Origin: Clostridia bacterium
GTDB taxonomy: Bacteria; Bacillota; Clostridia; Oscillospirales; CAG-272
Length of the DNA: 64,000 nt
Assembly: GCA_017461385.1 (NCBI GenBank)
Contig: JAFTXZ010000003.1
Location: 146,392-210,391 of the forward strand
Direction: 5' to 3'
A model generated the notes under the pieces. The model ran no database searches, was not told where the DNA came from, and saw nothing but the letters and a program-made list of their open reading frames with translations. A program made the translations under genes and the position numbers. The stretch's first letter is position 1. Every line of letters starts with the position of its first letter. Positions 1 through 60,260 of this stretch are shown here, piece after piece.

Positions 1-653
1 GAGTATTGCTGTAAATATGGGTCATGCTCAAGTATAGTTACGTCAAGAGTTCCACCGCCCAGGTCAAATACCATAATGGTTTGCTTCTTTGCGTAAATTC
101 TTCTTAAATCGTCGCTATACAGATATGCAATTGCTGCGCCAACCGGCTCTTGAATAATGCTTATTTTCGACTTATCAAGGCCTGTGATTTCCACAACGGT
201 ATCAACGAGAAGCTGGTTATAGTCAGTAGCCGTCATTTGACCCTCTGCAATACCAACAGGGGCAGTTATCGTTACTCTTTCGATATCAATATTTGAAAAC
301 TCTCCACTGCGCTTTGCGTTATCCTTAGCCTTTGCAAGCAAAAACGTCAGGTACTTCTTAAGCACCTCTTTAATTGTGTAGGTTTTGCCGTTACTTGTAA
401 TAGGGGCATTCAGATTTGAAGGATTTTGCCTTACAATCCTTTTCATATATCTGATAACCTCTTTACTATTTACAACAGCCTCACCGATTTCACAATCTGC
501 GCCGTATAGCTCAGAGTTTAATGCTCTTGAATACATAAACAGAGATGGAATACCTCTTTCATCTCCCTTTGAGCCAAAGTTTGTAATTGGAATCTGACCA
601 TTCATAATTGCAATAGATGAATAACAGGTACCAAAGTCAATTCCGATAATCAT
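1..653 (-). CDS. Divergent Hsp70-family ATPase (actin-fold nucleotide-binding domain). Only the N-terminal 217 codons lie in the window; the gene continues beyond position 1.
   Basis: Hand translation of the reverse strand from ATG at 653-651 (RBS GGAG 8 nt upstream) gives MIIGIDFGTCYSSIAIMNG...TITAPVGIAEGQ...IIQEPVGAAIAY...MVFDLGGGTLDVTIL. These match the Hsp70 phosphate-1, connect-1, phosphate-2 and DLGGGTFDVS motifs with correct spacing. The rest is too divergent to be canonical DnaK. The ORF track did not list it because no stop lies in the window. Confidence 0.7.
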   Translation of the reverse strand, partial: MIIGIDFGTCYSSIAIMNGQIPITNFGSKGDERGIPSLFMYSRALNSELYGADCEIGEAVVNSKEVIRYMKRIVRQNPSNLNAPITSNGKTYTIKEVLKKYLTFLLAKAKDNAKRSGEFSNIDIERVTITAPVGIAEGQMTATDYNQLLVDTVVEITGLDKSKISIIQEPVGAAIAYLYSDDLRRIYAKKQTIMVFDLGGGTLDVTILEHDPYLQQY

Positions 654-668
654 TTGTATTTACTCCTT

Positions 669-1718
669 TTATAAGATAATTCTAATTTTTGCAATTACTG
701 CATTGTCGTTTGTTTTCACCATCAAATATGGCTCGTTATCTATCATATTTACTACAAATCTAAGAGATTTGTCGAATCTTCCTGCGTAATCCTGCAAAAG
801 CACCTTGTCGCCGTATTCAAGGCGATAATAGGTATTGCTTGGAATTCTGTAGCCGTAAATTCTTCTCATTGGGAACACGCCTCTGATTTGTAGAGGGTTC
901 TTTCTTTCATTAGTATTTGAGCAATACAGAACTAATCTTTCTGCCAAAACAAATTCATCGCTTTCGTTAAGGGTTGCATTTGGCGTTTCTTGTGGTTCTT
1001 TTTGTGGTTCTTCCTCTTTTTGTGGTTGTTCCTGAGGCTCGTTGCCTGATTCATCGCTTGGAGTCTCAGCCTGTGGCTCATCACTCTGTGGCTTTTCCTC
1101 ATTCTGTGGCTCGTCGCTTGACACCTCGTTTTGTGGCTCGTCATTTACTTCGCCGAGCCTTACCTCGTCATCGTAAAGCTTGATAATCGGCTCCTCGTCC
1201 TTTTCCTCCTCAAGCTCGGATACGTACTTATAAACAAGCACATTTTCCATTATTTCCTCGGGGTCCTCGTTGTGAATTATACAGCCTATTTGCGTGGTAC
1301 GTGCGATTTTGCCATCAAGCTCCTTGTCATTTGTTACTCTGCAAGCTCCACCCACCTTTTCAGTTGGGTCAAGAATTTCGTTTTCCTTATGCATTTTAAG
1401 CTCGACGCCTATGTTTTTAAGGTGAGCCGACATACTTCTGATATAAATGCCGATTGCTCTTTTTAGCTCCTCTAAATCCTGTGCGTCCTCGGCGTCGTTT
1501 TTGATATCGGTAATCACTGGCAAAATAGCCTCTAAAACGTCTATTGCCTGTACCTTGTTTCTGTAAACGTCTGCCTGCTTCTTTTCCCAGCTAACCATTC
1601 TGCTAAGGTCGTCAACCTCGCTGGTTATAGTTTTCTTTAATTGCTCTATGCTTTCATCAAGCTCTGCAAATCTTCCATTTACGTATTTTGCACTTGAGCT
1701 AAGCTGATTATTATCCAT
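669..1718 (-). CDS. GrpE-like nucleotide-exchange-factor domain (N-terminal half), followed by an acidic Asp/Glu/Pro/Gln repeat linker and a C-terminal domain of unknown function
   Basis: N-terminal segments WEKKQADVYRNKVQAIDVLEAILPVITDI and LKNIGVELKMHKENEILDPTEKV align with the GrpE signatures ENLRRR...ELLPVIDSL and FGVEVI...LDPNVHQA. The central DEPQNE-type repeats are encoded by imperfect about 24-30 bp DNA repeats at roughly 1000-1140. The gene lies directly upstream of the Hsp70-like gene, in the same order as grpE-dnaK. Confidence 0.5.
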   Translation of the reverse strand: MDNNQLSSSAKYVNGRFAELDESIEQLKKTITSEVDDLSRMVSWEKKQADVYRNKVQAIDVLEAILPVITDIKNDAEDAQDLEELKRAIGIYIRSMSAHLKNIGVELKMHKENEILDPTEKVGGACRVTNDKELDGKIARTTQIGCIIHNEDPEEIMENVLVYKYVSELEEEKDEEPIIKLYDDEVRLGEVNDEPQNEVSSDEPQNEEKPQSDEPQAETPSDESGNEPQEQPQKEEEPQKEPQETPNATLNESDEFVLAERLVLYCSNTNERKNPLQIRGVFPMRRIYGYRIPSNTYYRLEYGDKVLLQDYAGRFDKSLRFVVNMIDNEPYLMVKTNDNAVIAKIRIIL

Positions 1719-1726
1719 ATATCCTC

Positions 1727-2083
1727 CTATCCCTTGGTGGTACGCTTAGGTGGCTCACCACTTGCGTATTCCTTACCTAAAATTACAATTCTCAAATTTC
1801 CCATATACATATCAACACTGCCCTCGACAGAGCTTGCTATGTTATCTCTCAATTGCTTAAGCCTTTGATCCCTCTCGTTCTCAATTACGCTAATTTGAGC
1901 TTGGGTGGACTTTGATTTTTTCGCCTGCGCGATTCTTGCTTCAAAGTCCTTTTCCGCCTTTTCTATCTTCTTATTGAAGAACTCTATTTCGTCCTTAAGG
2001 TCGTCAATTAGTCGTTGCTCCCTGGTTTCCATAAAGCTCTTTGTAAATGATAACTTTTGTTCAACGGTTTGCTTTTCCATCAC
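1727..2083 (-). CDS. Small (118 aa) predicted coiled-coil protein, function unknown
   Basis: Charged heptad-rich sequence with no HPD or WXG motif. Tightly packed between the giant ATPase gene and the GrpE-like gene (8-15 nt gaps), so it is very likely part of the operon. Confidence 0.45.
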   Translation of the reverse strand: MMEKQTVEQKLSFTKSFMETREQRLIDDLKDEIEFFNKKIEKAEKDFEARIAQAKKSKSTQAQISVIENERDQRLKQLRDNIASSVEGSVDMYMGNLRIVILGKEYASGEPPKRTTKG

Positions 2084-2098
2084 TTACACCTCACTCAC

Positions 2099-5000
2099 TT
2101 AGCGAAAGGAAATAGGTCTTATTCTGCAAAGGCTTGCGCCCCTTACGAGAATAGCCTTATAGCCTTCCTCTTCCTTTTTGATTTCCTCAAGGGCTGAGGC
2201 AAGTCGCTCCCTGCCCACTATTCCTATTCCGTCGCAGTCGCACTCCTTAGTTACAAGGCAGGCAGGCACCTTCTTAGCAAGCTCCTCTATATCTGCTCTT
2301 TGACTTGCTGAGGCAATTACGTAAATACCATACTTGCCACCCAGTGTTGCTATTGTGTATAGCGCCTCAAGAGCACTGGTATTGGAGTCTCTTACCTCCT
2401 TTTGCGCCTGCTCCTTTGCTTGAATAGCAAAGTTCATTTTGTTTTCCTTCATCTTGAGCATATTGAATATGTCCTCGATTGATGCGTCCTGATTCTTCGA
2501 CGGACTTGACGGTGCACTTCCGTATCTTGGCGCTCCGTCAGAGGTTGAAATGCTTCCCTTTAGTCTGGAAAGAGAGGAAAGCCTATTAACCATTACGTAT
2601 AGAGGTGATGGCTTGTATTCCTCGTCAGCCTCACATCTTTTTCTTCTTTCGAGATACTCTGCATAGGCATCTCTTACAAGCTCGCAAATATCTGCGCGCT
2701 CATACTTTCTTACGCTTAAGCCCTTTAGCCCCTCAAGGATTGGATGAAGAACGTTTTCAGTTACCTCCTCACCGTTACAGCAAAGCACCCTTGCGCTCTC
2801 TTTTTTGCTTATGCCCACTAGCATGCAAGCAAGAATTGATGATTGAATGGTCTTATTTTCGCTGATAACCAGCATAGATGAGCTATTTTTACTTAGCTCA
2901 ATTGACACCGGCAGACCAGAATAATCGTTTTCACCAATTGTGAAGCGAGAGTCCTCTGCTCCTCTTACAAGCTGTGCATAGGTTTTTTCTCCATCTGCCT
3001 TATCCTCAAGCAAAACAAAGCGACATTTTTCCTTATCCTGTACGCTCTTGTGCTTTTCCTTGATTTTTTCAATATAGCCCTCAAGCTCGCTTGATGTGGC
3101 GTAGGCGGTTTTTACAAGGGAGCTCTCCCCCTTGCAATAAAGATATGCTTCTCCTCGCTTCAAGGAGCTAAGCTCACTTGATTTTTCATCAAGCGCCATA
3201 CCTGAAATGTTTTTCTTTTCCAGTCTGAAGCATATCATTGTTTTTATTTGATTAAATACAGGGTTCCTTTCCACCTCGCCGTTTGCAATTATTATAAAAT
3301 GCACGCCTGCACATCTGCCCTGTAAAACAGTTTGCGCAAGGCTAAGGATTGTTTCAGAATAAGGCTGATCCTTTTCTCCCTCAAGTAAAGCCTGTGCCTC
3401 ATCAAGCACCACGACTATTCTCGGAAGCACCTTGCCTCCATTCCTTCTCATATCCTCATTATATTCATATACCGTGTTTTTTCCAAGTGAAGCAAAAAGC
3501 GCTTTTCGCCTTTCGATTTCCTCGGAAAGCGCCTCTATGGTGTAGTAAATATCCCACTGACTACAGCCGTCCTTTGCCAGTCTTACGTGGGGCAGTCCCT
3601 TGCTTATATATCTACCAACGGCTCCGTTTTTCTTAAAGTCCAAGAGCCAAAGCTCCAAAAGCTCCCTTGAATACTGCATACAGCCGTTAATTACTATACT
3701 GTGCAAAAGGGAGGACTTTCCCGTGCTGACCTCTCCTAACACCAAGCAGCCTCCCAGCTGAGTGTCCTCTGCCTTACAGCTAAGTTTTAAGCATACCTCT
3801 TTTCCGTTGGACACGCCAATCGGTAGAAGCATTACCTCGCCATCATCTCTTGTAGCTTTATCAAAGCCCAAGTCATTATATGTTACTCTTTGCTCATTTT
3901 TACCATTCACAAGGGACGCCATTTCGGAACAAATTCCCCTTACAAAGGCCACGGAATCCTCTCCTGCCGGAATCATACAAGGGGTGATTTTTGAGTCGCC
4001 CTTGAATATTTCCTTGCCCCTTTGCTCAAGCTTAACGCCTGTATTAAGAAGCTCCTCGTCCTTGTCGCAGACAATTATCAATCTAACGCCTGCCCTTACT
4101 CCATTTTCAGAAAGAAGCTTTCTTAAAATTGATTTTTCCTCAGCGTTTTCCAAAAGCTCCGTCAGCTTATCTCTTATAACAAGCAGGGTATGCTCCTTAT
4201 CGGTTAGTCCTGTGTCTAGTGGAGCTAAAATTTCCATTGGCTCACTTGATATAGTAACAAGCTCACTTGAGAGGGTGTCCCTTATTGTCTCAAGCACAGG
4301 GCATTCCCTTGAAATTATCTTGACGCTCAGGTCTCCTAAAGGAAACTCCTCCAGATATTTCAGCGTCAAGCCACCTATTATTTTATCAAGATAGTCGTTG
4401 TTTTTTCCGTCTCTTTTTAGAATTACTGCCTCGCCACACTGCACGTCAACGCTAAGTATTGCCGGAATTTCCACACTGCGTGAACCGTAAACCTCCTCAA
4501 GAAGCTCACATTTTGCAAGAGCCGTGCCGAAATCTCCAATTGGAATAAATTTTGGCACGCTTCCCTTGTAATCTCTTATTTGACCTATTGAAAGGTCCTT
4601 GCTTTTTTCAATCAGCTCGCCAAGCTCTGCCCTTGCCTTATCAAGAATGCCTGCAAGCTCGCTCTCGCCCTGCTCGCAAAATTCCTTTAGCTTGACCTTT
4701 GCCTGTTGCAAAAGCTCCTCGTGCTTTCGTAGCTCGTCTGCCTTAACTAAATTGAACATTCTTGTCTTTGCGCCCTCGCCCCTTGACAAGTCCTCAACCA
4801 GCCTTCCGCTTTCCTCCACAAGCTCCTTTTCAAGTCTTTCTATCTCATTATCAATTTGAATTGCCCTTTGGAAAACCTCTTGATTTTCTCCACCAGAGCC
4901 GTCCATTTGTCTTTCCAAAATAGCCTTTTCGCTACTATAATTTTCGTTTTCTCTCTCAAGCTCGCTGGCATACCACTCGCTAATGTCCTTAATTGAGCTC

Positions 5001-5770
5001 TCGTGATCCTCCTTTGCCCTTTGGAGCCTTTTCTCGTTATACTTAACAAGCGGGTCGCTTTCCCCTGTGGGCTTGAGCTGAGTGTTTAGCTCCTCCAATC
5101 TGTCCTGTCCCTTGTAGTATTCCTCTGCCAGCTCAAGAAGCTTTTTTCTTGATGGTGGTACAAAGTCCTTGCCACCTAGCTTAAGATAGTCGGAAAGGGC
5201 CTCCTTGTATCTGTCAAGCTCCTTATAAATCCTTGATCTTATTTCTCCGTTTTTCTTTTCCTGTTCCTCAATTCTCTTGATTAAATCACGGTTTTTTCCG
5301 CTATTTATCATTGCATAAACGTCTGAACGAACGCTAAGAGAGCTTTCAAGCTCTGCCTTTAATTGCTCATACTCGCTATCAGCATTGTTCTTCATTCGCT
5401 CATATCGGCAGGATAGGTATTCAAGCTTTTCAGAATGCTCTCTTTCAAGTCCCTCAAATCTTTCGTTGTATGCCTTTTTTACGTTGTCGAGTCTTTCGCC
5501 CTCGTCTGAAAGAAGCTTTTCTCTTTCCGCCTTCAGAATATCTATTTTTTCAATAGCTACCCTTTCGATTTCTCCAAGGCGCTCCTTTTTTGTTGCATCA
5601 AGAATGGAAAGAAGCTCCTCCTCCTCGCGCTTGAATCTTTCAACTTCCTCGTTTAAGGATTTTTGTGCCTCCTCAAGTATTGCGTTAAGGCTGGCTCTTT
5701 TTTCCTCAAAGGTCCTTTTGGCTTCCAAATATTCTTTGTTCTTTTCTTCGATAAGACTCTTTATATCCAA
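2099..5770 (-). CDS. Giant (1223 aa) cytoplasmic protein: about 400 aa N-terminal coiled coil, an FtsK/SpoIIIE/EssC-family P-loop ATPase domain, and a probable second degenerate FtsK-like domain
   Basis: Walker A LGEVSTGKSSL. Walker B IVVVLDEAQALL. The following GVHFIIIANGEVERNPVFNQIKTMICFRL...GEAYLY matches the FtsK block GIHLILATQRP...IKANIPTRIAF...GDMLY. The C-terminal GIYVIASASQRADIEELAKKVPACLVTK resembles a second degenerate copy. No TM helix or FHA motif seen. The start codon is TTG at 5770, preceded by RBS AAGGGGGAG. Confidence 0.7.
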   Translation of the reverse strand: MDIKSLIEEKNKEYLEAKRTFEEKRASLNAILEEAQKSLNEEVERFKREEEELLSILDATKKERLGEIERVAIEKIDILKAEREKLLSDEGERLDNVKKAYNERFEGLEREHSEKLEYLSCRYERMKNNADSEYEQLKAELESSLSVRSDVYAMINSGKNRDLIKRIEEQEKKNGEIRSRIYKELDRYKEALSDYLKLGGKDFVPPSRKKLLELAEEYYKGQDRLEELNTQLKPTGESDPLVKYNEKRLQRAKEDHESSIKDISEWYASELERENENYSSEKAILERQMDGSGGENQEVFQRAIQIDNEIERLEKELVEESGRLVEDLSRGEGAKTRMFNLVKADELRKHEELLQQAKVKLKEFCEQGESELAGILDKARAELGELIEKSKDLSIGQIRDYKGSVPKFIPIGDFGTALAKCELLEEVYGSRSVEIPAILSVDVQCGEAVILKRDGKNNDYLDKIIGGLTLKYLEEFPLGDLSVKIISRECPVLETIRDTLSSELVTISSEPMEILAPLDTGLTDKEHTLLVIRDKLTELLENAEEKSILRKLLSENGVRAGVRLIIVCDKDEELLNTGVKLEQRGKEIFKGDSKITPCMIPAGEDSVAFVRGICSEMASLVNGKNEQRVTYNDLGFDKATRDDGEVMLLPIGVSNGKEVCLKLSCKAEDTQLGGCLVLGEVSTGKSSLLHSIVINGCMQYSRELLELWLLDFKKNGAVGRYISKGLPHVRLAKDGCSQWDIYYTIEALSEEIERRKALFASLGKNTVYEYNEDMRRNGGKVLPRIVVVLDEAQALLEGEKDQPYSETILSLAQTVLQGRCAGVHFIIIANGEVERNPVFNQIKTMICFRLEKKNISGMALDEKSSELSSLKRGEAYLYCKGESSLVKTAYATSSELEGYIEKIKEKHKSVQDKEKCRFVLLEDKADGEKTYAQLVRGAEDSRFTIGENDYSGLPVSIELSKNSSSMLVISENKTIQSSILACMLVGISKKESARVLCCNGEEVTENVLHPILEGLKGLSVRKYERADICELVRDAYAEYLERRKRCEADEEYKPSPLYVMVNRLSSLSRLKGSISTSDGAPRYGSAPSSPSKNQDASIEDIFNMLKMKENKMNFAIQAKEQAQKEVRDSNTSALEALYTIATLGGKYGIYVIASASQRADIEELAKKVPACLVTKECDCDGIGIVGRERLASALEEIKKEEEGYKAILVRGASLCRIRPISFR

Positions 5771-6004
5771 TTTATCTCCCCCTTCTATAAGGTGTATTGG
5801 CTTTGCGAATTTTTGAACTAGCTGACGTCTTGTTCATATTTTCGAATTACGATTTTTTCAAGAACTTAAGTCCATAAAAACGCGCAAATATAGGTACAGC
5901 TTAATTCTAGCACAGTTTTTTTCTACTGTCTATAATGTTTAAGTGATTTTAGAAAATGTTCTTATTTTTTGAACTTTACTCCATTTGAGGGTTTTTTTGT
6001 TTTC

Positions 6005-6052
6005 ATTTTTTGAAAAACGAAGCAAAAGGAGAGCGAATCAATCGCTCTCCTT
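6005..6052 (-). terminator. Rho-independent terminator for the glycoside hydrolase gene
   Basis: Stem AAGGAGAGCG/CGCTCTCCTT at 6026-6052 directly after the stop at 6053-6055, with a T-run on the minus strand. Confidence 0.5.
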
Positions 6053-8080
6053 TTACTCTTTGATTTCTGTAACCTTAACTAACGGTCTGTACTCGATAAA
6101 TTTGTTTTTGCCTGGGCAAATTTGATATTTACCAATAGTTGCAAGAATATACCAGGACGCCATGCTTCCGTTATCCTCATCACCTGGGAAGCCCTCCTCG
6201 GTGCTAAACAGCTCCGTGGTGATTTTTTTAACCAGCGCTCTCGTTTTTGATTTTTTTCCAAAATGTGCGTAGATAAATGGCAAATGGAAGCTGGGCTGAT
6301 TTGATATAGCAAGCTGACCTAAGCCACCTCTTGCCATTTCAGACATTTCGTGAATTTCTGCTCCATAGCTTCCAACTCGAAACTCTGCGGGAGCTGACAA
6401 AATTTCATCAAGCCTTTTCAGTAGCTTATCCCTTCCACCGTATAGCCTGCTAAGCCCCTCAATGTCGTGAACAACAGATAGGGAGCCCTGCCAGGGCGCG
6501 CACTCGGTGAAGCCGTAGCCCCACTCGTAGGGGTCAAAGTCCACTCTAAACTCGCCCCTGCTGTTTTTTGGTACAATAAAGCATCTTTCCTTGTCGAAAA
6601 GCCTTTTGTATGCGCCCTTACGAGAGGATTTCCCACATTCCTTATAATAACGTCTTGCAAGCTCCACCGTCTGTGGTTCTAGTCCAAATTTACCTGTCTT
6701 GCATAGCTCGTCATTCCTTATTATAATACAATCAGCAACTTGACAAACGCACCAGTCCCCGTAGGAATAATCAACTGTCAAATTCACACTTTCTCCATAC
6801 AAATCACTGGGGACGTATCCGTATTTTAGATAATCACCAAGTCCGGCTCTGCCATAAATTTTGCTAGGAGGACACTGACTTACGTTTTTAACCATGCCCA
6901 AAAATCCGTTTACCAGCATTTCGTCATCAAGCAAGCCCTTTGTAGCGCCATCTGCAATAACCGACTCAATAAGGGTGCTGGGCATACAGCCAACCTCACC
7001 CATGCTACTCCATCTGGGCAGCCAGCCTCCGTCCACATAGTCAACAATAAAGCCTTGAAGAATCTCTCTGAATTCCTTCTTAGCAATTATGGTAAAGAGA
7101 GGCAATTGAGTTCTGTATGTATCCCAAAAGCCACTGTCAGTATATCGAACACCTTGCCTTTTTTCCTTTAACAGCGGTGCATAGTGAACGCACTCACCAT
7201 TTTTTTCAATCTCGTAAGCCTTGTGTGGGAACAAAAACGCCCTATACATACAGGAATAAAAGGTTCTTAAAATCTTTTCGTCAGCCTCTATCTTAATCCT
7301 CGAAAGCTTTTCCTCCCAAGACTCTTTGGCTCTTTCTCTTACTTGCTCAAGGGTTTTGCCTTGAATTTCCCTTTCCATATTTACAAGCGCTTGAGCATAG
7401 CTAATATAGGAAATTCCTACACGTACCTCGGTATTTTTTGCGCTAAGTGGCAAATGAAGATACGTTTTGCCATCCTCGCTTCCGCATTCTGCGCTTTCCA
7501 AAAGCGCATCACCTAGCTCAAGCACAAAATATGTTTTGAAGTCTGGCGCGTCTGCCTGGTGAGTGCCCTTTATAACTCCGCGAACTTGCTTTCTTTCCTT
7601 ATCAAGCTCTTCTATTTCAAGCTGACAGGAGGTTGAAAAAATCGAAAGCACAGGTTGACTCTTTCCCTCGTAGCTTAGCTTTATAATAGCGCATCTTTCA
7701 CTTGGTGCTAGCTCTAGAGTGCATTTAGGCTTTATTAGTCTAACCTTAATGTAATCGGGGGATAGCTGACACTCTGTCGGCAAAAAGCTGGAGCACGCCG
7801 AGGAGGCGCTGTTTTTTATTTGGTCGCACTGGGGAACAAAAAGCATCGTACCATAATCCCCAATCCAAGGACTCGGCTGATGCGTTAGCCTAATTCCCTC
7901 CATATAGCTTGCTCTCGGCTTATAAAACCAGGTCTCCTTGCCCGCCTCAAGCTCCGTCTGTGGGCAAAAGGACACCATACCAAAGGGAAGCTGGCAAAGT
8001 GGCAGGGTGTTTCCCGTTGAATATTTAATGGTACTCTCTGTACCCATTTTTACATTGACATAATCTAAATATCCCATCAT
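6053..8080 (-). CDS. Cytoplasmic glycoside hydrolase, probably GH92-like (alpha-mannosidase-type). Family assignment is tentative.
   Basis: N-terminal GT...GNTLP...PFGMV...P.T resembles the GH92 N-terminal signature. No signal peptide. The ORF track start is TTG at 8095; RBS GGGAGA favours the ATG at 8080 or 8077. Confidence 0.4.
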   Translation of the reverse strand: MMGYLDYVNVKMGTESTIKYSTGNTLPLCQLPFGMVSFCPQTELEAGKETWFYKPRASYMEGIRLTHQPSPWIGDYGTMLFVPQCDQIKNSASSACSSFLPTECQLSPDYIKVRLIKPKCTLELAPSERCAIIKLSYEGKSQPVLSIFSTSCQLEIEELDKERKQVRGVIKGTHQADAPDFKTYFVLELGDALLESAECGSEDGKTYLHLPLSAKNTEVRVGISYISYAQALVNMEREIQGKTLEQVRERAKESWEEKLSRIKIEADEKILRTFYSCMYRAFLFPHKAYEIEKNGECVHYAPLLKEKRQGVRYTDSGFWDTYRTQLPLFTIIAKKEFREILQGFIVDYVDGGWLPRWSSMGEVGCMPSTLIESVIADGATKGLLDDEMLVNGFLGMVKNVSQCPPSKIYGRAGLGDYLKYGYVPSDLYGESVNLTVDYSYGDWCVCQVADCIIIRNDELCKTGKFGLEPQTVELARRYYKECGKSSRKGAYKRLFDKERCFIVPKNSRGEFRVDFDPYEWGYGFTECAPWQGSLSVVHDIEGLSRLYGGRDKLLKRLDEILSAPAEFRVGSYGAEIHEMSEMARGGLGQLAISNQPSFHLPFIYAHFGKKSKTRALVKKITTELFSTEEGFPGDEDNGSMASWYILATIGKYQICPGKNKFIEYRPLVKVTEIKE

Positions 8081-17338: not shown

Positions 17339-20137
17339 TTATCTCGCAACTTCTTGCATTTCGTAAGCTTCTAATATATCCCCTTCCTTTATGTCGTTAA
17401 ACTTATCTAGTCCAACGCCACACTCGTAGCCAGCTGCAACCTCTTTTGCATCGTCCTTGAATCTCTTCAAGGAAGAAATTTTGTCTTCTGCTATTACTAC
17501 ACCGTCACGAATAATTCTTATGAGGGATTGTCTTGTAATCTTACCGTCTTGAACGTAGCTACCTGCAATTGTACCAACGTTTGGAACTCTGATGGTCTGA
17601 CGAACTTCAGCGTGGCCGTTGATAACCTCTTTATAGGTTGGTGCAAGCATACCCTTCATAGCAGCTTCGATTTCTTCTATGATTTCATAAATAATTCTAT
17701 GGGTTCTAATATCAACGCCCTGTCTTTCTGCAGAGTCAATAGCACTCTTGTCAGGACGTACGTTAAAGCCAACGATAATTGCATTTGATGCAGCAGCAAG
17801 CATAACGTCGCCCTCAGTAATACCACCAACGGCTGTATGAATTACGCTAACCTTAACCTCTGGATTGGAAAGCTTAACAAGTGAAGCCTTTACAGCCTCT
17901 GCGCTTCCTCCAACGTCTGCCTTAACGATAATATTGATTTCCTTAGCACCGTCGCTAATTTGAGCAAATAGGTCGTCAAGGTTAACCTTTGCATTAGCCT
18001 TGAATACCTCCTCCTTAGCCTTAGCCTTTCTTTGCTCAGCAAGCTCTCTTGCCATCTTTTCATCCTTAACGGCATTGAACTCATCACCTGCCTGTGGAAC
18101 CTCGGAAAGACCAGTAATTTCAACAGGAACAGATGGACCTGCAACCTTAAGTGATTTTCCGTTGTGGTCAGTCATAGCTCTTACGTGACCTACTGCAGTG
18201 CCTGCAATAACAACGTCACCAGACTTAAGTGTACCATTTTGTATAAGAATTGTTGCAACAGGTCCTCTACCCTTATCAAGCTTAGCCTCAATAACGATAC
18301 CCTTAGCAAGTCTGTCAGGATTTGCCTTAAGCTCCTTAACCTCAGCAATAAGCAAAATACTTTCAAGTAGGTCGTCAATACCCATCTTTGTGTGAGCAGA
18401 AACAGGAATACACATAACGTCACCACCCCATTCCTCCGGAACAAGGTCGTATTTTGTTAGCTCCTGCATAATGTTGTCAGGATTTGCAGTTGGCTTATCC
18501 ATCTTATTTATAGCAACAACGATATCTACGCCAGCAGCCTTTGCGTGGTTGATAGCCTCAACGGTTTGTGGCATAATTCCGTCGTCTGCTGCAACAACGA
18601 TGATTGCAATATCAGTTGCCATAGCACCACGTAGACGCATAGCAGTAAATGCCTCATGGCCCGGGGTGTCAAGGAACGTAATGTCCTTGCCGTTAATATT
18701 TACTCTGTAAGCACCGATGTGCTGGGTAATACCACCAGCCTCACCAGTTGTAACGTGAGTGTGTCTGATTGCGTCAAGAAGTGATGTTTTACCATGGTCA
18801 ACGTGTCCCATAACGCAAACAACCGGAGCTCTCTCCTTAAGGCTTTCCGGAGCATCAACCTCCTCCTCAAAGAGCTTTTCCTCGATTGTAACCACAACCT
18901 CTTTAGAAACCTTAGCGCCAAGCTCATCACCAATTAGATATGCTGTATCATAGTCAATTACTTGGTTTACGGAAGCCATAACGCCCATAAGCATAAGTCT
19001 TTTGATAACCTCGCCAGAGTTTACCTTAAGTCTTGTTGCAAGCTCACCAACGGTAATTTCGTCTGGAACAGTAATAGCAAGCTGAGTGTTCTTAGCCTTT
19101 TCAAAGATAGCTCTCTTTTGCTTATCAAGCTGTCTTTCCTTGTCCTTTTTAGAGCCGAAGCCCTCCTTGTTATTCTGCTTTTTGAGCTTTTGTCTGTTGC
19201 TTCCGCCACCTTGGTATCTCTCGTTCTCGTCCTCGTATGCCTCAAACTTTTCATCATACTTAGAAAGGTTTACGTTAGATGAACGAGTATCTACAAGACG
19301 GGTTGCACCTGTCTTTGTCTTAATCTCGATAACGTTGCTTTCAGGCTTCTTGGTTTTTGGCATAACGTTGTAGGTACGGCGCTCGCCACCGTCTTTATCG
19401 AAGCCACCAAATTGACCCTTTTGTCCCTTATCAAACTTATTGTTGTTATCGAATTTGCGGTCAGGTCTTTGTCCTTGACCCTGTCCCTTATTATCAAAGG
19501 ACTTCTTTTCAAACTTGTTCTCGAATCTGTCATTTTTATTCTCGAACTTGTTTTCGCCCTTAAAGTCAGGCTTTTTATCGAACTTTTGGTTGTTACCAAA
19601 ATCCTTTTTCTCAAATTTCTGCTCTGGCTTAGTCTCAGGCTTCTTTTCTACCTTAGCCTCAACCTTTGCTTCAACCTTTGGTTCAGGCTTCTTCTCTACC
19701 TTAGCCTCAACCTTAGGTTCAACCTTAGCTTCTACCTTCTTTTCAGCCTTTGGTTCAACCTTTGATTCAACCTTTGGCTCAGGCTTCTTCTCTACCTTAG
19801 CTTCAACCTTTACTTCAACCTTTGGTTCAGGCTTCTTCTCTACCTTTACCTCTGGCTTAGCTTCAACCTTAGGCTCAACCTTCGGTTCGGCCTTTACCTC
19901 TGGCTTCTTTTCTGCCTTTTTCTTCCTTGTGCCAATGGTAATCTCACCATTTAGGTATTTCTCCATCAAGCCCTTTGCCTGATGCTCCATTGTATATTTG
20001 TTCAAGAAAACGGAGATTTCATCATCTTGAATATTTCCTGTCTGTTGCTTTTGTCCTAAGCCGTATTTCTCAATTAGGTCAAGAGCGTCCTTTATATCAA
20101 GGCCTAAATCCTTTGCAAAGTCTTTAATTCGTGCCAT
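17339..20137 (-). CDS. infB: Translation initiation factor IF-2 with an N-terminal KPEVK repeat region
   Basis: GTPase motifs [16 protein letters not shown]...DTPGHEAF...NKMD, 932 aa. The gene context is that of the nusA operon. Confidence 0.95.
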
Positions 20138-30589: not shown

Positions 30590-30790
30590 ATGCAAATTTA
30601 GTGAAGTTTTCGCTTATGCGAAAGTGAAGTTGCTTTGCAGTGAAGTTCGTGCTATCGTACGAGTGAAGTTAAGTTTGCCCACCTTGCCGAAGGCAAAACT
30701 TCACGATCTGCAGGATCACTTCACTTACGAAGTAAACTTCACTTGCCCGCAAGGGCAAACTTAGTTGCGTAGTGTCCTTAAGGGCACTAC
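30590..30790. promoter_or_regulatory. Iteron-like array: 4 direct GTGAAGTT motifs, then 3 inverted AACTTCAC motifs, interleaved with at least 6 short perfect palindromes
   Basis: Read directly from the sequence. Palindromes are TTCGCTTATGCGAA, TCGTACGA, TTGCCGAAGGCAA, GATCTGCAGGATC, TTACGAAGTAA, TTGCCCGCAAGGGCAA and GCGTAGTG..CACTACGC. Confidence 0.6.
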
Positions 30791-39492: not shown

Positions 39493-42400
39493 TTAGTCAA
39501 CTACAATGTAGATTGGATTTTCGCTAACGTTAACCTTTACGTAACCAAGCTCATCAGCCTCAAGCTCGGTCTTTTTACCCTCGGTTAGTCCGTTTACGTT
39601 TTCAACCAAGGTTGCACCTGTGCTATTAATTCTTACACAGTAGTCTTCAACCTTTGTTCCGTCAGAGGTTGGGCACCATACTGCGTAAGCTGTCTTGCCG
39701 TCCTCGTTTTGGTATTCGTAAAGCATTACGTTTTCGTCATAGGTTTCAATCTGCCTTGTGAAGATATAATCGCCAAGAGTATTTTTTAGTGTATATAGAT
39801 AATAGTAAGAATCCTTCTTGAACTCTACCACGTTTCCATCCTCATCATACTCATAGCCGATAACACCTGAGGAGCCAAACTTACCAACTGCCTCGTTTTC
39901 AACGCCTGTGTCCTCACACATATACATAGTTGCCTTATCTACACCAGATGCAGAAAGCAGTAGATATGCACGAGTTAGCCACATTGCCTGTACCTGTCTG
40001 CCTGTGTATTCACCATAAGCATGCGCAGAGTTTACTGTTGCGTAGCTTTGGTTAGTATCCCAACCAAACTCAGTTAGCCAAACCTCTTTATCCTTATAGT
40101 ACTTGTCTCTTATTTCAACAAGCTGTGAAAGGATACCAGGTAGGTCTGCTTCCTCTGGAGACATACCAACGTAACGAATCTTATCGCCGGCAACCGTAAT
40201 CGCCTTTGACATATATTGGTGAACGTTGAATGCGTCGATTGCAACCTTGCCGTCAGCACGGTTTGCCTTCATCCAATAGCACATAGCTGTAATGTACTCA
40301 TTACTTGCAGCAGAAATACCTGCCATGCCAACGCCCATATCGGTATTTGCGTTCTTTGCACCGAAGTGGTAAGTTCCTGTCGAAACTGCTGTGTTGATTG
40401 TTGAGCAGTGTCCGTCGTAGCCTGCAGAGGTCAACGCAGCAAGCTGATATGCTGAGAAGTAACCGTCAATTCCGCCGTGCCATGAAGCGTCTGGCTCGTT
40501 TCCAAGCTCAAGCCACTTAACAAGGCCAAGACCAACTGTTGGTGAATCGTTATAGTGCTCTCTTACAGCATCAAGAAGTGCTGTGGAGGTGTTTGTGCCA
40601 TAACGTGCAGAGTATGCAAACATTAAATCTGCGTATGTATAATAGGTGTTAGGATCGAACTTATCCCAATAATCACCCTTAACAAGTTTGCCCTCGGTAT
40701 CTCTTACCGGAACACCGTCCTCATCAATCTTATTTGATACGCCGTTCTTTTGTAAATCCCATTGAATACAAGGAATTAGGTTAATTCCAGCCTTTACGTA
40801 TTCTGCATAGCGCTGGTCAAAGTTACCCATTCCGCTTGATGAGAAGTATGACGCCTTACCTGGGAAGTCAGATTCCACGTACGCCCAGCCAAAGTTGTGA
40901 TATTCTCTTAGTACAGAGGTACAAATTACAGAATCAACAGGTGTGTTACCACCACCGATAGCAGTGAAGCCACACATACCCATCATTTCGTTGATGCTTG
41001 GTAGATTATTCTTGCTTGTGTTAATCTTGTCGCCCTCGCCGTTTTGATAACCGTAGGTTAGCATCTCGTAAGGAGCAGTTCCGTCTGTAAATACAATTTG
41101 AATATATCTTGTGTCTGTACCAATCTCAATTTCATTCCAGCCAGTAGCCGTTGTGAACGTGTAGTAGCCGTCCCAGACTGAATTCTCTGACATAAAGTCA
41201 AGAGGTGTGTCGCTCCATCTAACGGTTACATTATAGCCCTCATCTGCATAATACAAATATACAGAGCTTATATAGTGGAGTGTTTCAAGGTCAACGATTG
41301 GAGCAAGTCTTAGATTGTAATATTTGCTTTCTGTATCTGTAAAGTTTCTTGCAATTACAGTGCTTGGCATTGTTGAGCCAGTTCTGAACTCATCACTTTG
41401 CTCATCAAATAGATTTGCAAAGGAGGAAAGAATTTCACCGTGATATACGTTTGCCTGCTCGTAATCAATAGGAATTAGCTTATTTCCACCAACTCTTACG
41501 CACTTAACCGTTCCTAGGTTAGTGCCAGAGTATGGTCTTACCGCTACGTAGTAGCACTTATCAAGGCTTGCATCAAGGTTAAAGGTAGCAGTTATTTCTC
41601 TGTTGCCAGAAATCGTTGCGTTTAGCTGTGTTGCGCTATCGAAGTTTTCGCTTGTGATTTCGCTTGTGCTATATCTGATATCGTAAGCCACGGGGTTTGT
41701 GTAAATGTTGAACTTTAGCTTAACCTGTGTGCCGTTTACCTGAGTTACTCTTAAGTACTTGATTTCCTCAAGAGCAAGCGCCTTAACCTCGCGCTCCTCC
41801 TCTAAATTACAGCCTACGCACCTATAGGTTGCCATTCCATTTGAGGATATGCTGGGCGCCTTTGTATATGAAACAAATCTTTGATAGTTATGTCCTGTTG
41901 CGTCAAGAGTAATTGTTCTTCTATACGCGCCACAGGTGCATAGATAAACCGCCTGTCCCTTTTCTGTACAGGTAGGTGCTGTATAGGAAACCAGTTGAGT
42001 GAATTCTCTTACAAGCTTTGGAGTGTAGTAGTCTCCAGTTTTTCCACAGTAGCAAGCATACTTAGCTGTACCTCTTTCTACACAGGTAGAAGGAGTCATT
42101 TGCTCAACAAACTCTCTATGGTCGCAAATATGCTTATCATCAACACTAAGAAGTCTTGTATCCTCCTTAGCACCATGAATTTCTATCTCTGTTAGCTTGA
42201 AGGTCTGATAGCTTTCCTTAATAGAGGTAATTTCAACCTCAATTGTATATACTCTGTACTTTTCGCCCTTGAACACCTCAATCTTATCGCCAGGTCCACC
42301 ATAAGCAGAGGCATTTGCTCTTACGCTTTCACTAATTAGCGTTTGACCGTTTGCATTCTTTACTCTTACGGTTGCAGTAGTCCAGTTACCTGCAACGTAA

Positions 42401-43110
42401 ACGTATAGCTCCTTAAGAATGATTTCTTGACCAAGAGTAACAACTAAAACGTCACCCAAATCCCCAAACCAGTCGCTTCCCTGTGCATAGATACCAGCAC
42501 TATCCGTATTGCCGTCAAACACCTTCCAAACGTTATCAACAGCAGGGTTATAAATGCTACTTGCTTCAACGGTGTAAATGTCATCCTTTGTCAGCTTCTT
42601 TGTGATAAGCTGAGGAAGCGCTTGACTGTTTGTCTTGCCACAGTTTACGCACTCAAAGGTTGCTCTGCCAGCCTGGGTCAGAGTTGGTTTCTGAGAAACA
42701 CTTGCAACCTTTGAAAAATCGTGGTCATCAGACTTTGGAAGCTGCTGCTGAGATTTTAACAATGCATCACACACGGAGCATTTCTTTCCCTCTGTTTTAC
42801 CAAAGGTTTTGCAGGTTGGAGCAACTGCAGGAATAATTTCCTCTGTATGGCCAATTGCGTTTATGTATCTTATTCCTATTTCTCCACAAAGAGTACACTT
42901 ACTGTGCTCCTCGCCTCTTATGTCGCATTTTGGCTCGTAAATTACTTCCCACTCCTCATAATTGTGCTGACAGGTGTCGGGGTTTCCTCCTCCACCTTCG
43001 CCACTTCCCGTCTCAATTGCTGGAGGCTCTTCTCCTCCACCACAGGCAGAGAAAACGCAGACAATTAAAAGCAATGCTATAATTAGTAAGCTTAATTTCT
43101 TTACGTTCAT
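39493..43110 (-). CDS. Giant (about 1205 aa) surface lipoprotein with Cys-rich CxxC repeats, an F5/8 type C (discoidin)-like domain and a C-terminal clan GH-A glycoside hydrolase catalytic domain
   Basis: Lipoprotein signal MNVKKLSLLIIALLLIVCVFSAC. WLELGNEPD is the acid/base NEP motif and VWLTEFGWD the nucleophile TEFG motif of clan GH-A. The start is taken at MNVKK. Confidence 0.65.
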   Translation of the reverse strand: MNVKKLSLLIIALLLIVCVFSACGGGEEPPAIETGSGEGGGGNPDTCQHNYEEWEVIYEPKCDIRGEEHSKCTLCGEIGIRYINAIGHTEEIIPAVAPTCKTFGKTEGKKCSVCDALLKSQQQLPKSDDHDFSKVASVSQKPTLTQAGRATFECVNCGKTNSQALPQLITKKLTKDDIYTVEASSIYNPAVDNVWKVFDGNTDSAGIYAQGSDWFGDLGDVLVVTLGQEIILKELYVYVAGNWTTATVRVKNANGQTLISESVRANASAYGGPGDKIEVFKGEKYRVYTIEVEITSIKESYQTFKLTEIEIHGAKEDTRLLSVDDKHICDHREFVEQMTPSTCVERGTAKYACYCGKTGDYYTPKLVREFTQLVSYTAPTCTEKGQAVYLCTCGAYRRTITLDATGHNYQRFVSYTKAPSISSNGMATYRCVGCNLEEEREVKALALEEIKYLRVTQVNGTQVKLKFNIYTNPVAYDIRYSTSEITSENFDSATQLNATISGNREITATFNLDASLDKCYYVAVRPYSGTNLGTVKCVRVGGNKLIPIDYEQANVYHGEILSSFANLFDEQSDEFRTGSTMPSTVIARNFTDTESKYYNLRLAPIVDLETLHYISSVYLYYADEGYNVTVRWSDTPLDFMSENSVWDGYYTFTTATGWNEIEIGTDTRYIQIVFTDGTAPYEMLTYGYQNGEGDKINTSKNNLPSINEMMGMCGFTAIGGGNTPVDSVICTSVLREYHNFGWAYVESDFPGKASYFSSSGMGNFDQRYAEYVKAGINLIPCIQWDLQKNGVSNKIDEDGVPVRDTEGKLVKGDYWDKFDPNTYYTYADLMFAYSARYGTNTSTALLDAVREHYNDSPTVGLGLVKWLELGNEPDASWHGGIDGYFSAYQLAALTSAGYDGHCSTINTAVSTGTYHFGAKNANTDMGVGMAGISAASNEYITAMCYWMKANRADGKVAIDAFNVHQYMSKAITVAGDKIRYVGMSPEEADLPGILSQLVEIRDKYYKDKEVWLTEFGWDTNQSYATVNSAHAYGEYTGRQVQAMWLTRAYLLLSASGVDKATMYMCEDTGVENEAVGKFGSSGVIGYEYDEDGNVVEFKKDSYYYLYTLKNTLGDYIFTRQIETYDENVMLYEYQNEDGKTAYAVWCPTSDGTKVEDYCVRINSTGATLVENVNGLTEGKKTELEADELGYVKVNVSENPIYIVVD

Positions 43111-43239
43111 TTTTTCTCCTTCTCTTGCTAATATAAGCAAGGATTAAAAGTTTCTAATATAATTATAAAGTATAATAATCGATATTTCAATAATAAAATT
43201 TGATTTCACCTTTAATATAAATATTTTTCTAAAAATATA

Positions 43240-43606: not shown

Positions 43607-43694
43607 GCAGGGGTATCGAAGCGGTCATAACGAGGCGGTCTTGAAAACCGTTTGGCCAAAAGCCACGTGGGTTCGAATCCCACCCCCTGCGCCA
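43607..43694 (+). tRNA. tRNA-Ser (anticodon UGA) with a long variable arm and encoded CCA
   Basis: Acceptor GCAGGGG/CCCCTGC, anticodon loop CTTGAAA, variable stem TGGCC/GGCCA, T-arm GTGGG-TTCGAAT-CCCAC, discriminator G plus CCA. A terminator follows. Confidence 0.85.
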
Positions 43695-55171: not shown

Positions 55172-55738
55172 TTAATAGGTTGTGCTATTTATTCGCCAAC
55201 CATTTTTCTCAAGCCTTACCTGAATGCTTTTTATATTTCCATCAATGGTAGTTACCTGAGCATTTATTATATTACTTGTAGTTTCCTTAATTTCTATTGT
55301 GTCAAGGTCATAAACGTAAACGTCCACTAGTGGCTCAATGTCCTTTCTCACCAAAATTGCACCGCCAACCTCAATATATCTTGGCTGAGCAAGGGTGCCT
55401 CCACCTGCGCTATATCTTCCCTCAAAGGTAGAAACGATAAGCTCCTCGGCGTAGCTTTCAGTAAGAATAGACCTTGTAAAAGCCTTTATTTCCTCTAGGC
55501 TTTTATATTTTTCACTTGAGCTCATTTCCACGTAAGCATTATTAGTTTCTATATCTATATGCTCAAGACCGTCTCCGTAATGAATACGGTTTATTTCAAA
55601 GACACCCTCCATTAGCTTTTGAACTATTGGAAGCGCCTCCTCCTTAGAAATGGACTCCTCTCCGTTACAGCCCACCATTAGGGTAGCCAAGGAGGCTACC
55701 ACTAATAGCATAGCTAGAATCTTAGTTAATTTTTTCAC
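55172..55738 (-). CDS. Lipoprotein of unknown function between gyrA and recA
   Basis: [24 protein letters not shown]. Overlaps the gyrA stop by 4 nt. Confidence 0.55.
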
Positions 55739-58302: not shown

Positions 58303-58316
58303 CTTAAGCCACCCCC

Positions 58317-60260
<1,944 letters not shown>

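Follow-up and report, generated by a model that had tools for sequence, protein, structure and literature searches.

A rare four-gene operon of gut and rumen Clostridia encoding a soluble EssC-like ATPase, a GrpE-like fusion protein and a lid-less Hsp70

The A-B-C-D operon and its chromosomal setting

The window analysed here, i.e., the whole stretch of 64,000 nucleotides (nt) from contig JAFTXZ010000003.1 of a Clostridia bacterium (GCA_017461385.1), begins with four tightly packed open reading frames (ORFs) on the minus strand, designated A, B, C and D, which encode a soluble EssC/EccC-like ATPase, a small helical protein, a GrpE-like fusion protein and a lid-less Hsp70. Gene A (2099..5770 (-), 1223 amino acids (aa)) is followed by gene B (1727..2083 (-), 118 aa), gene C (669..1718 (-), 349 aa) and gene D (1..653 (-)), with intergenic gaps of 15, 8 and 15 nt. 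The tight packing of four minus-strand genes, described in a first-pass annotation of this DNA, was thereby borne out by the ORF listing, from which A, B and C were taken; B was in addition recognized with a hidden Markov model (HMM) of its family. Gene D, which begins at 653, is cut off at position 1, whereby the first 217 of its 519 codons lie within the window. The missing end was supplied by two metagenome contigs (L001 and L002), which match the window with 100% identity along 11.7 kb and in which D comprises 519 aa and is followed by a hairpin-plus-T terminator-like sequence, a spacer of ~190 nt and an unrelated glycoside hydrolase (GH39) gene. The operon had initially been expected to continue past position 1, which turned out to hold for the remainder of D alone.

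On the upstream side, a terminator-like hairpin with a 17-bp stem and a T run (6020..6058 (-)) belongs to the upstream GH92 gene and marks the upstream boundary of the operon. Downstream of this terminator and ~130 nt upstream of A, a putative promoter was identified at 5932-5904(-) by a consensus scan alone (TAGACA-17-TAGAAT, with a TG before the -10 element, i.e., of the extended -10 type; 5904..5932 (-)). As A is preceded by a terminator and a promoter-like site and D is followed by a terminator-like hairpin, A-B-C-D is, by prediction, a self-contained four-gene operon among glycoside-hydrolase genes. The same window holds infB (17339-20137 (-)), gyrA and gyrB (55735-60257 (-)) and a tRNA-Ser gene (43607-43694 (+)), and the operon is therefore chromosomal and resides neither on a plasmid nor on an obvious mobile element. 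No recombinase gene was found to adjoin the operon and no transfer genes lie between the flanking glycoside hydrolases. A canonical hrcA-grpE-dnaK-dnaJ cluster was not found within the 64-kb window.

The soluble EssC-like ATPase A

Protein A was identified as a homologue of the type VII secretion ATPases, whereby matches were obtained with the NCBIfam models of EssC (E 1e-22, residues 664-1043), EccCa (E 1e-15) and EccCb (E 1e-13) and with Pfam FtsK_SpoIIIE (E 8e-10, residues 673-856), and whereby its sequence matches in the PDB are EccC and YukB chains. The EssC score of 79.8 bits stands against an NCBIfam equivalog cut-off of 778 and hence denotes homology, below EssC membership. A motif scan revealed a single Walker A motif (GEVSTGKS, residue 679, nt 3713-3736) and a single Walker B motif (VVVLDE, residue 786, nt 3398-3415). 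No transmembrane (TM) helix was identified in A, its maximal 19-residue hydropathy of 1.43 remaining below 1.6, and no FHA domain was matched in the Pfam scan.

Four regions were distinguished within A. Residues 1-395 (4586..5770 (-)) form a charged, helical and coiled-coil-prone N-terminal region, as judged from composition and a heptad test, in which E, K, R, Q, L and A account for 0.5-0.68 of the residues and Pro and Gly are scarce; here, a crude test for heptad periodicity yielded z values of 2-5 solely for segments 1-63, 211-252 and 295-336. The earlier description of A as a giant cytoplasmic FtsK/EssC-type ATPase is upheld by the EssC/EccC matches and the lack of a TM helix, and its long coiled coil is reduced to these segments. 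Residues 641-905 (3056..3850 (-)) constitute the single active FtsK-type P-loop domain (D2), as the motifs and the Pfam, NCBIfam and PDB matches centre here. The conserved, domain-sized residues 400-640 (3851..4573 (-)) and the conserved C-terminal residues 930-1223 (2102..2983 (-)), neither of which holds a P-loop motif, are presumed to be the inactive D1 and D3, respectively. EssC D3 is the substrate-docking domain, and the assignment of an inactive D1 follows what has been published on the class (PMC3482391, PMC11090510). Both regions are conserved in the sister group of A-like proteins considered below, and the NCBIfam EssC and EccCb alignments reach ~60-110 residues into D3, to residues 1043 and 992. 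D2 was found by hhalign to be related to stand-alone FtsK-like genes of relatives (E 7e-31), and a search for internal repeats (D1/D3 versus D2, hhalign) gave nothing significant. The pattern of one central domain with the Walker motifs is shared by 12 relatives; a single central Walker A motif was seen in every relative inspected, more distant ones among them, and most of these are devoid of TM helices. When full-length A was used in a word-indexed search for homologues, coiled-coil words dominated the outcome and only 4 orthologues were retrieved; orthologues of A are present in 7 other loci.

The FtsK_SpoIIIE match, together with a relative locus (L011) which carries a serine recombinase gene and a TraG-like fragment, could be taken to mean that A is a DNA translocase or a conjugative coupling machine (FtsK/SpoIIIE/TraB/TcpA-like) equipped with a chaperone. 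This reading is highly improbable and was rejected, as the best matches of A are EssC, EccC and YukB rather than DNA pumps, A possesses no membrane anchor, relatives carry WXG100-like and toxin genes and the window locus lies between glycoside hydrolases with neither recombinase nor transfer genes.

The lid-less Hsp70, the GrpE-like fusion protein and protein B

The D fragment within the window matches Pfam HSP70 with E 2e-15, and full-length D (taken from L001) matches DnaK, HscA and BiP with E 1e-39 to 1e-32, one DnaK match being recorded at E 5e-32. Residues D6, K71, E169, D197 and G199-T202, along with other Hsp70 catalytic residues, are invariant in a 43-sequence alignment of the D family. 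The AlphaFold2 (AF2) model of D (predicted local distance difference test (pLDDT) 90, predicted template-modelling score (pTM) 0.88) comprises a nucleotide-binding domain (NBD, residues 1-380) which a linker joins to a beta domain of nine strands (residues 395-518). The alpha-helical lid is absent from this model, the protein ending at residue 519 just past the beta domain. With Foldseek, the model was matched over its full length to DnaK and BiP, both in full-length form and as constructs with a truncated lid (E 5e-36, 527-572 columns, best TM-score ~0.7), whereby D is 22-25% identical to solved Hsp70s (DnaK, BiP) in structural alignments and, by tblastn, 25-31% identical to Hsp70 genes of bacteria and archaea. 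D is thus predicted from sequence and model to be a divergent, apparently active Hsp70 from which the lid only is missing. The first-pass annotation had characterized D as a divergent Hsp70 NBD protein, of which the divergence stood and the restriction to the NBD did not, as a beta substrate-binding domain (SBD) is likewise present. The D family comprises ~130 clusters at 35-55% identity; in a contig scan with the D-family alignment, 78 of the 80 loci were canonical dnaK loci and true members were found in L013 and L014 only.

A J-domain protein at the locus had been denied from the outset, which agrees with the finding that no HPD tripeptide occurs in the proteins checked from the window, L003, L005, L011, L124 and L104 loci and that no DnaJ Pfam match was obtained among the operon proteins scanned, a housekeeping DnaJ encoded elsewhere in the genome being possible.

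Protein C consists of a divergent GrpE domain (residues ~20-170, 1209..1661 (-), delimited by profile comparison), an acidic Pro/Gln/Glu-rich linker (residues ~171-245, 984..1208 (-), which the model renders with low confidence and without structure) and a beta-rich C-terminal domain (residues ~246-349, 672..983 (-), identified in the AF2 model). The window protein gave no Pfam match, and its match to the NCBIfam GrpE model PRK14160 (E 8e-5, residues 19-114) is sub-threshold, with 22 bits versus a cut-off of 184. Relationship to GrpE was revealed by hhalign comparison of 8 diverse C-like N-domains with 66 canonical GrpE sequences, the latter taken from the dnaK loci which the D-family contig scan had fetched (probability 95.5%, E 1.6e-8, 123 columns), whereby the alignment covers the helical-bundle and beta-domain motifs in register. 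When a GrpE HMM was run on 558 ORFs of seven D-family loci, the Hsp70-adjacent genes ranked first. A full HMMER scan of 1.84 billion proteins identified 44 homologues of the C N-domain (50% clustering), and Pfam GrpE, matched by 12 of the 43 scanned (best E 3.5e-6), is by far the most frequent family among them; close homologues of C number 9. The predicted secondary structure (helices 24-52, 56-78 and 82-102, then strands) fits GrpE in its order, in a model with pLDDT 48. PDB sequence searches with C, a C-family profile and a C N-domain profile gave no informative match, GrpE (3a6m) appearing at E 0.73. The C-terminal domain, with ~10 predicted strands at pLDDT 55-70, is conserved in C proteins from further loci, L011 and L012 among them, and Foldseek gave no fold match for it on the poor C model. 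Taken together, C is predicted to be a divergent GrpE homologue, which by curated thresholds is not a member of the family, and the initial reading of the 349-aa protein as a GrpE-like N-terminal half followed by an acidic linker and a C-terminal domain is supported.

The linker of C was observed to be variable. In relatives it is encoded by a 30-nt tandem repeat with PVDDTPVEDE-like units (8.2 copies at L005:10739-10983), and near-identical C proteins of relatives vary between 404 and 464 aa through repeat number; the linker of the window C (984-1208) shows a weak 12/18-nt repeat only.

Protein B (E 7e-48 with the B-family HMM) was identified as a shortened member of a family of helical proteins of 205-223 aa, which always precedes C(-D). 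No relatives of B were found in Pfam, NCBIfam or the PDB, including with a B profile.

With GrpE-like and Hsp70-like genes following each other in an order that mimics grpE-dnaK, the locus might be viewed as an ordinary second stress-chaperone operon which has the ATPase gene as its neighbour by chance. Such a view is next to incredible and was rejected, given the divergence of D from other Hsp70s and its lack of a lid, the nature of C as a fusion protein whose family numbers just 44 representatives in 1.84 billion proteins, the absence of dnaJ and hrcA from the locus and the recurrence of the linkage to A and B in unrelated genomic contexts.

Conserved association and cargo cassettes in relatives

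Comparison of gene neighbourhoods documented A, B, C and D together in 8 independent loci, namely the window, L003, L005-7, L011, L122, L124, L193 and L194, with the assignments backed by local HMMs, and the gene association on which the initial proposal of a dedicated system depended is hence conserved. At least two genomic contexts were identified, i.e., the syntenic GH92/GH39 site and the site in L011, where a serine recombinase gene lies upstream and a TraG-like fragment downstream. The A-B-C-D system is rare and resides in gut and rumen Clostridia.

In 6 of the 8 loci, the space between A and B is occupied by a toxin gene, a small gene and three to four genes for small helical proteins. 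Within the GH92...GH39 site of L005, L006 and L007, which derive from related Clostridia, A is followed by two stand-alone degenerate FtsK-like genes, three helical proteins of 81-93 aa, a 395-aa protein whose N-terminus is a coiled coil and whose C-terminus is a C39-like peptidase, a 147-aa protein, B (223 aa), C, D and four paralogous ~190-aa proteins. L003 holds A, one FtsK-like gene, B, C, D and four HslV-like genes, and is devoid of cargo. In L011, L122, L193 and L194, the order is A, a 202-aa protein, proteins of 79, 92 and 88 aa, the toxin, a small protein (not evident in L122), B, C and D, and L124 shows the gene order of L011 with a C39-like toxin. The small proteins of the cassette are orthologous across loci, the 202-aa member matching Pfam WXG100 with E 1e-5, and the toxins share a common N-terminal region and vary in their C-termini (Gln-amidase-like, HExxH motif, C39-like peptidase, WHH nuclease). 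Judged by these features, the cargo cassette is predicted to be one of polymorphic toxins with T7-type helper proteins and putative immunity genes. EsaA/EssA/EssB-type membrane partners were not found in any A-B-C-D operon.

The four tandem ~190-aa paralogues directly after the Hsp70 gene (L005:12963-15285, L003:9525-11786; absent from the window) deserve separate mention, as their joint profile matches HslV (PDB 1m4y) over its full length with E 3e-4 and one weak Pfam Proteasome match was obtained; it is unusual for a proteasome-like set of four paralogues to accompany an FtsK-type ATPase and an Hsp70.

The sister group and the portable C-D module

A metagenome scan with an alignment of A returned 51 loci. 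In ~30 sister loci, which make up a larger group than the Hsp70-type loci, an A-like protein of ~1090 aa precedes the same WXG100-like/toxin/immunity cassette. A ~785-aa protein is encoded exactly at the position of B-C-D in at least 12 of these loci, and further loci contain just fragments of it at contig ends. Given this membrane protein at the B-C-D position, B-C-D is regarded as an alternative accessory module. The ~785-aa protein (L104:13008-15365 and at least 11 other sister loci within L095-L123) was seen in L104 to possess a helical, cytoplasmic N-terminal half, one TM helix (residues 352-378) and four PASTA-like C-terminal repeats, and could be a membrane anchor or an envelope sensor of soluble EssC-like systems. 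The idea that B-C-D represents a split version of this protein was dismissed, since hhalign of B or C found no similarity.

A C-like or GrpE gene adjoins D in each of the 10 D-family neighbourhoods sampled, A often being absent. L013 and L192 encode D, a short C-like protein (C') and a superfamily 1 (SF1) helicase (AAA_11/AAA_12; L013:2166-7268, L192:10001-15080), for which a weak HEPN_Swt1 match was found in L013 (E 0.002), and L008 (10001-15849, apparently an archaeal contig) encodes D, C' and a 1040-aa protein without Pfam match. The short GrpE-like protein of L008 and L013 carries a Cys-rich, Zn-ribbon-like N-terminus, and the combination of Hsp70, short GrpE-like protein and a protein of 900-1040 aa looks like a separate candidate conflict system. 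In L009 (8194-16640), four Hsp70-like paralogues (552, 546, 554 and 556 aa) are grouped around a C-like gene of 539 aa and adjoin a 1508-aa DEAD/MZB (YprA-like) helicase and a weakly Sel1-like protein, and L010 holds a Pfam-recognisable GrpE plus D. A triad of B-like, C-like and D genes was identified between comEC and tyrS in a metagenome-assembled genome of Bacteroidaceae (L014:8313-11521), with no EssC-like gene within 10 kb, and B therefore belongs with C-D rather than with A. As the C-D pair is found without A, it is a portable module for which A is one of several partners.

From these findings, a possible though doubtful reading emerges, according to which B, the GrpE-fusion C and D would constitute a J-protein-independent, portable chaperone cassette that is plugged into different prokaryotic conflict systems (soluble EssC/T7-like toxin cassettes, HEPN/SF1-helicase effectors) as a regulatory or unfolding unit and replaces the membrane partner in EssC-type systems. 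Motor and Hsp70 would then form a fully cytoplasmic protein-remodelling machine, with four HslV-like subunits in close relatives, and not a secretion machine.

The same loci bear on an intracellular conflict system, i.e., phage defence or abortive infection, from which nothing would be secreted. Here, ATPase and Hsp70 triad would act as sensor and unfoldase, releasing the toxin from its immunity protein in the producing cell upon infection, and the Hsp70 might sense viral or misfolded proteins. In favour of this, a membrane component is absent from all Hsp70-type loci, the sister locus L104 adjoins a GmrSD restriction gene, C-D lies beside HEPN/SF1 helicases in L013 and L192, L008 and L009 have such a helicase and a YprA-like helicase in the vicinity of C-D, and L011 combines its upstream serine recombinase with a downstream TraG-like fragment. 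Moreover, Bell et al. regard homologous soluble EssC-like/WXG100 cassettes as defensive add-ons of CoCoNuT restriction systems. We nevertheless consider defence unlikely, as the sister group does encode a membrane protein and known defence families give nothing above a weak mad8 match of A (PADLOC run with all four proteins: E 2e-11, FtsK-type domain alone; B-D nothing). The cargo, furthermore, resembles classical polymorphic toxin/immunity pairs with WXG100-type helpers. In characterised type VIIb secretion systems (T7SSb), such pairs are exported for interbacterial competition. Scans of viral contigs revealed neither the A family nor a close relative of D, which gives no sign of a phage-borne system, and this absence argues neither for nor against defence.

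Proposed function and the reduced window copy

The account we prefer, to which slightly better than even likelihood was assigned, is that the operon represents the motor-plus-chaperone core of a rare, membrane-less variant of the 'mobile' type VII secretion system (T7SS)-like polymorphic-toxin systems, from which the cargo cassette has been lost. Starting from the homologies, domain content, gene order and conservation given above, each functional step was proposed by analogy. Initially, the small helical proteins would bundle with the toxin N-domain, and the complex thus formed would be recognised by A, in analogy to LXG-Lap-EssC of T7SSb. D may keep the toxin domain unfolded or inactive, or may strip off the immunity protein, before hand-over to A. 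For this, D would be cycled by its own exchange factor C, whose GrpE domain is tethered via the long acidic linker to the beta domain, and B might assist D in place of a J-protein. Finally, a soluble hexamer of A was suggested to process the toxin complex, powered by the single active central P-loop domain.

Several observations weigh against this proposal. By crude hydropathy, no membrane protein was found in any Hsp70-type (A-B-C-D) locus; no export conduit is therefore visible, and a secretion role of A-B-C-D would be an analogy only. An FtsK-like fold in D1 and D3 was undetected by hhalign against D2 or the stand-alone FtsK-like genes (E 0.002-0.13). Structural confirmation of the GrpE fold of C was not obtained, the AF2 model, built from a 9-sequence alignment, reaching pLDDT 48 and Foldseek giving no meaningful match. 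The C-D pair occurs in loci without A, and a physical link between A and B-C-D is hypothetical. The remaining points concern the window copy itself: B lacks ~110 central residues, which include the best-conserved motif of its family in the alignment; BLASTP identities of A, B and C to the syntenic counterparts amount to only 36-42% (B over the retained segments); and of the positions which do not vary among five other A proteins, A keeps 73%, Walker A and B included. The divergence of A, B and C, together with the lost core of B, is compatible with relaxed constraint.

Within the 64-kb window, no homologues of the WXG100-like, toxin N-domain, immunity, stand-alone FtsK-like or HslV-like genes were found anywhere. 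Since more distant loci hold cargo between A and B, the absence of cargo from the window is understood as a loss. With the cargo genes absent and the core of B lost, the window system would be limited to cargo encoded elsewhere, or idle. The identity of A, B and C to their counterparts differs from that of D (80%) and of the flanking GH39 gene (84-93%) between syntenic genomes (L001 versus L005/L003), and this mismatch suggests that A, B and C were either replaced by a divergent allele or have evolved at an accelerated rate. Reduction may have progressed as far as a non-functional relic, with four genes drifting after deletion of cargo and accessory genes, for which the stepwise loss among syntenic relatives speaks (L005 full, L003 without cargo, the window also without the FtsK-domain gene and the four HslV-like genes), as do the ~110-residue internal deletion from B which takes out a conserved motif, the low identity of A, B and C against that of the flanking GH39 gene and the change of A at 27% of otherwise invariant positions. 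That the genes are such a relic is decidedly unlikely, however, as all four frames are intact and a 3.7-kb ORF would not survive neutral drift to ~40% identity, the Walker A and B motifs of A are preserved, D is 80% identical to its orthologues with all catalytic residues kept, and the 8-15-nt spacing, the promoter-like site and the terminator were retained. The window copy is accordingly viewed as a divergent, reduced allele of the motor-plus-chaperone core, which either acts on cargo encoded elsewhere or drifts towards loss. It is less informative than the complete relatives, its main value being that it documents which genes are kept once the cargo is lost.

Elsewhere in the window, two features were recorded that are separate from the operon. 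An Rfam match to Gut-1 RNA was obtained at 30693-30767 (-), with 53.3 bits versus a gathering score of 50. A gene at 39493-43140 (-) encodes a predicted lipoprotein of 1215 aa, which has no Pfam match at E 1e-5. In this protein, a hydrophobic segment resembling a signal peptide precedes a Cys, and repeats rich in Cys lie close to the N-terminus.

Comparison with known systems

Since 2012, comparative-genomics papers have pointed out membrane-less EssC-like ATPases that have WXG100 genes as neighbours; such 'type VII' motors would have to work unanchored. A 'mobile T7SS' was described by Zhang et al. 2012 as a soluble YueA/EssC-like ATPase with three FtsK/HerA domains, the middle one being active, plus WXG100 (PMC3482391, footnote), and mobile T7SS cassettes were treated by Anantharaman et al. 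2012, as cited by Bell et al. (PMC11090510). Bell et al. 2024 described EssC-like ATPases with an N-terminal coiled coil, neither TM helices nor FHA domain, D2 alone being active, and WXG100 neighbours (PMC11090510). The mobile T7SS cassettes have so far been described computationally only (PMC3482391, PMC11090510). Protein A resembles these in lacking TM helices and in possessing a long helical N-terminus and one central Walker A/B pair, and the complete relatives resemble them in carrying WXG100-like genes and a coiled-coil-plus-toxin protein followed by a small protein. The descriptions differ, as far as the footnote and the account of Bell et al. extend, in mentioning no Hsp70, GrpE-like protein or B family, and the window copy differs in having no adjacent WXG100 or toxin genes. 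The same cargo cassette being combined with either a single-pass membrane protein or the Hsp70/GrpE/B triad amounts to a natural experiment, and the choice between the two points to the step that is served, i.e., membrane docking versus cytoplasmic remodelling.

With the type VIIb systems, which comprise EssC, EsxA/WXG100, LXG toxins and their Lap helpers, and immunity proteins, A-B-C-D shares the EssC-type P-loop motor, whereas A is devoid of the FHA domain and the two TM helices and has one active ATPase domain, and the loci are devoid of EsaA/EssA/EssB. Known T7SS chaperones are EspG/EsaE or EccA and not Hsp70 (PMC11217815). Likeness to canonical GrpE-DnaK-DnaJ is given by the ATPase residues, the interdomain linker and the beta SBD of D and by the GrpE-homologous domain encoded immediately upstream, yet D has no lid, C is a GrpE domain fused via an acidic linker to a beta domain, and the pair is accompanied by the novel helical protein B and by no J-protein. 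A dedicated lid-less Hsp70 with its own exchange factor and without J-protein bears on how Hsp70 cycles may be driven and targeted without J-domains.

Dedicated Hsp70s have been described in other predicted conflict systems. Kaur et al. 2020 reported HSP70 and GrpE in GAP1-N2 GTPase-centred conflict systems of Firmicutes and Actinobacteria, where some of the Hsp70 copies lack the peptide-binding domain (PMC7159879). The likeness to these, namely a dedicated Hsp70 plus GrpE in a predicted conflict system, is one of description; the difference is that those systems comprise GTPases and FNIII/DnaJ or TPR proteins, whereas the operon reported here has neither GTPase nor DnaJ and has an EssC-like partner. 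CnuD of the type III CoCoNuT systems (Bell et al. 2024, PMC11090510) possesses an Hsp70-like NBD and SBD with degenerate Walker-like motifs and predicted RNA binding. D differs from CnuD in keeping all catalytic residues and in having its own putative exchange factor, and the CoCoNuT systems have their Hsp70-like unit in the McrBC part rather than in the EssC cassette.

A published combination of an EssC-like ATPase with B, a GrpE fusion and a lid-less Hsp70 was not found by full-text search, in a survey of T7SS variants c-j (PMC11217815) or in a survey of polymorphic toxins, subscription-only literature lying outside this scope. The first-pass annotation had put the motor and its chaperones forward as a candidate undescribed system, which calls for division: the architecture of the motor had already been noted (PMC11090510), and the coupling of Hsp70, GrpE-like protein and EssC-like ATPase was not met with in the literature. 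The motor class is hence known from comparative genomics, and its coupling to B, the GrpE fusion and the lid-less Hsp70 is new within the literature searched.

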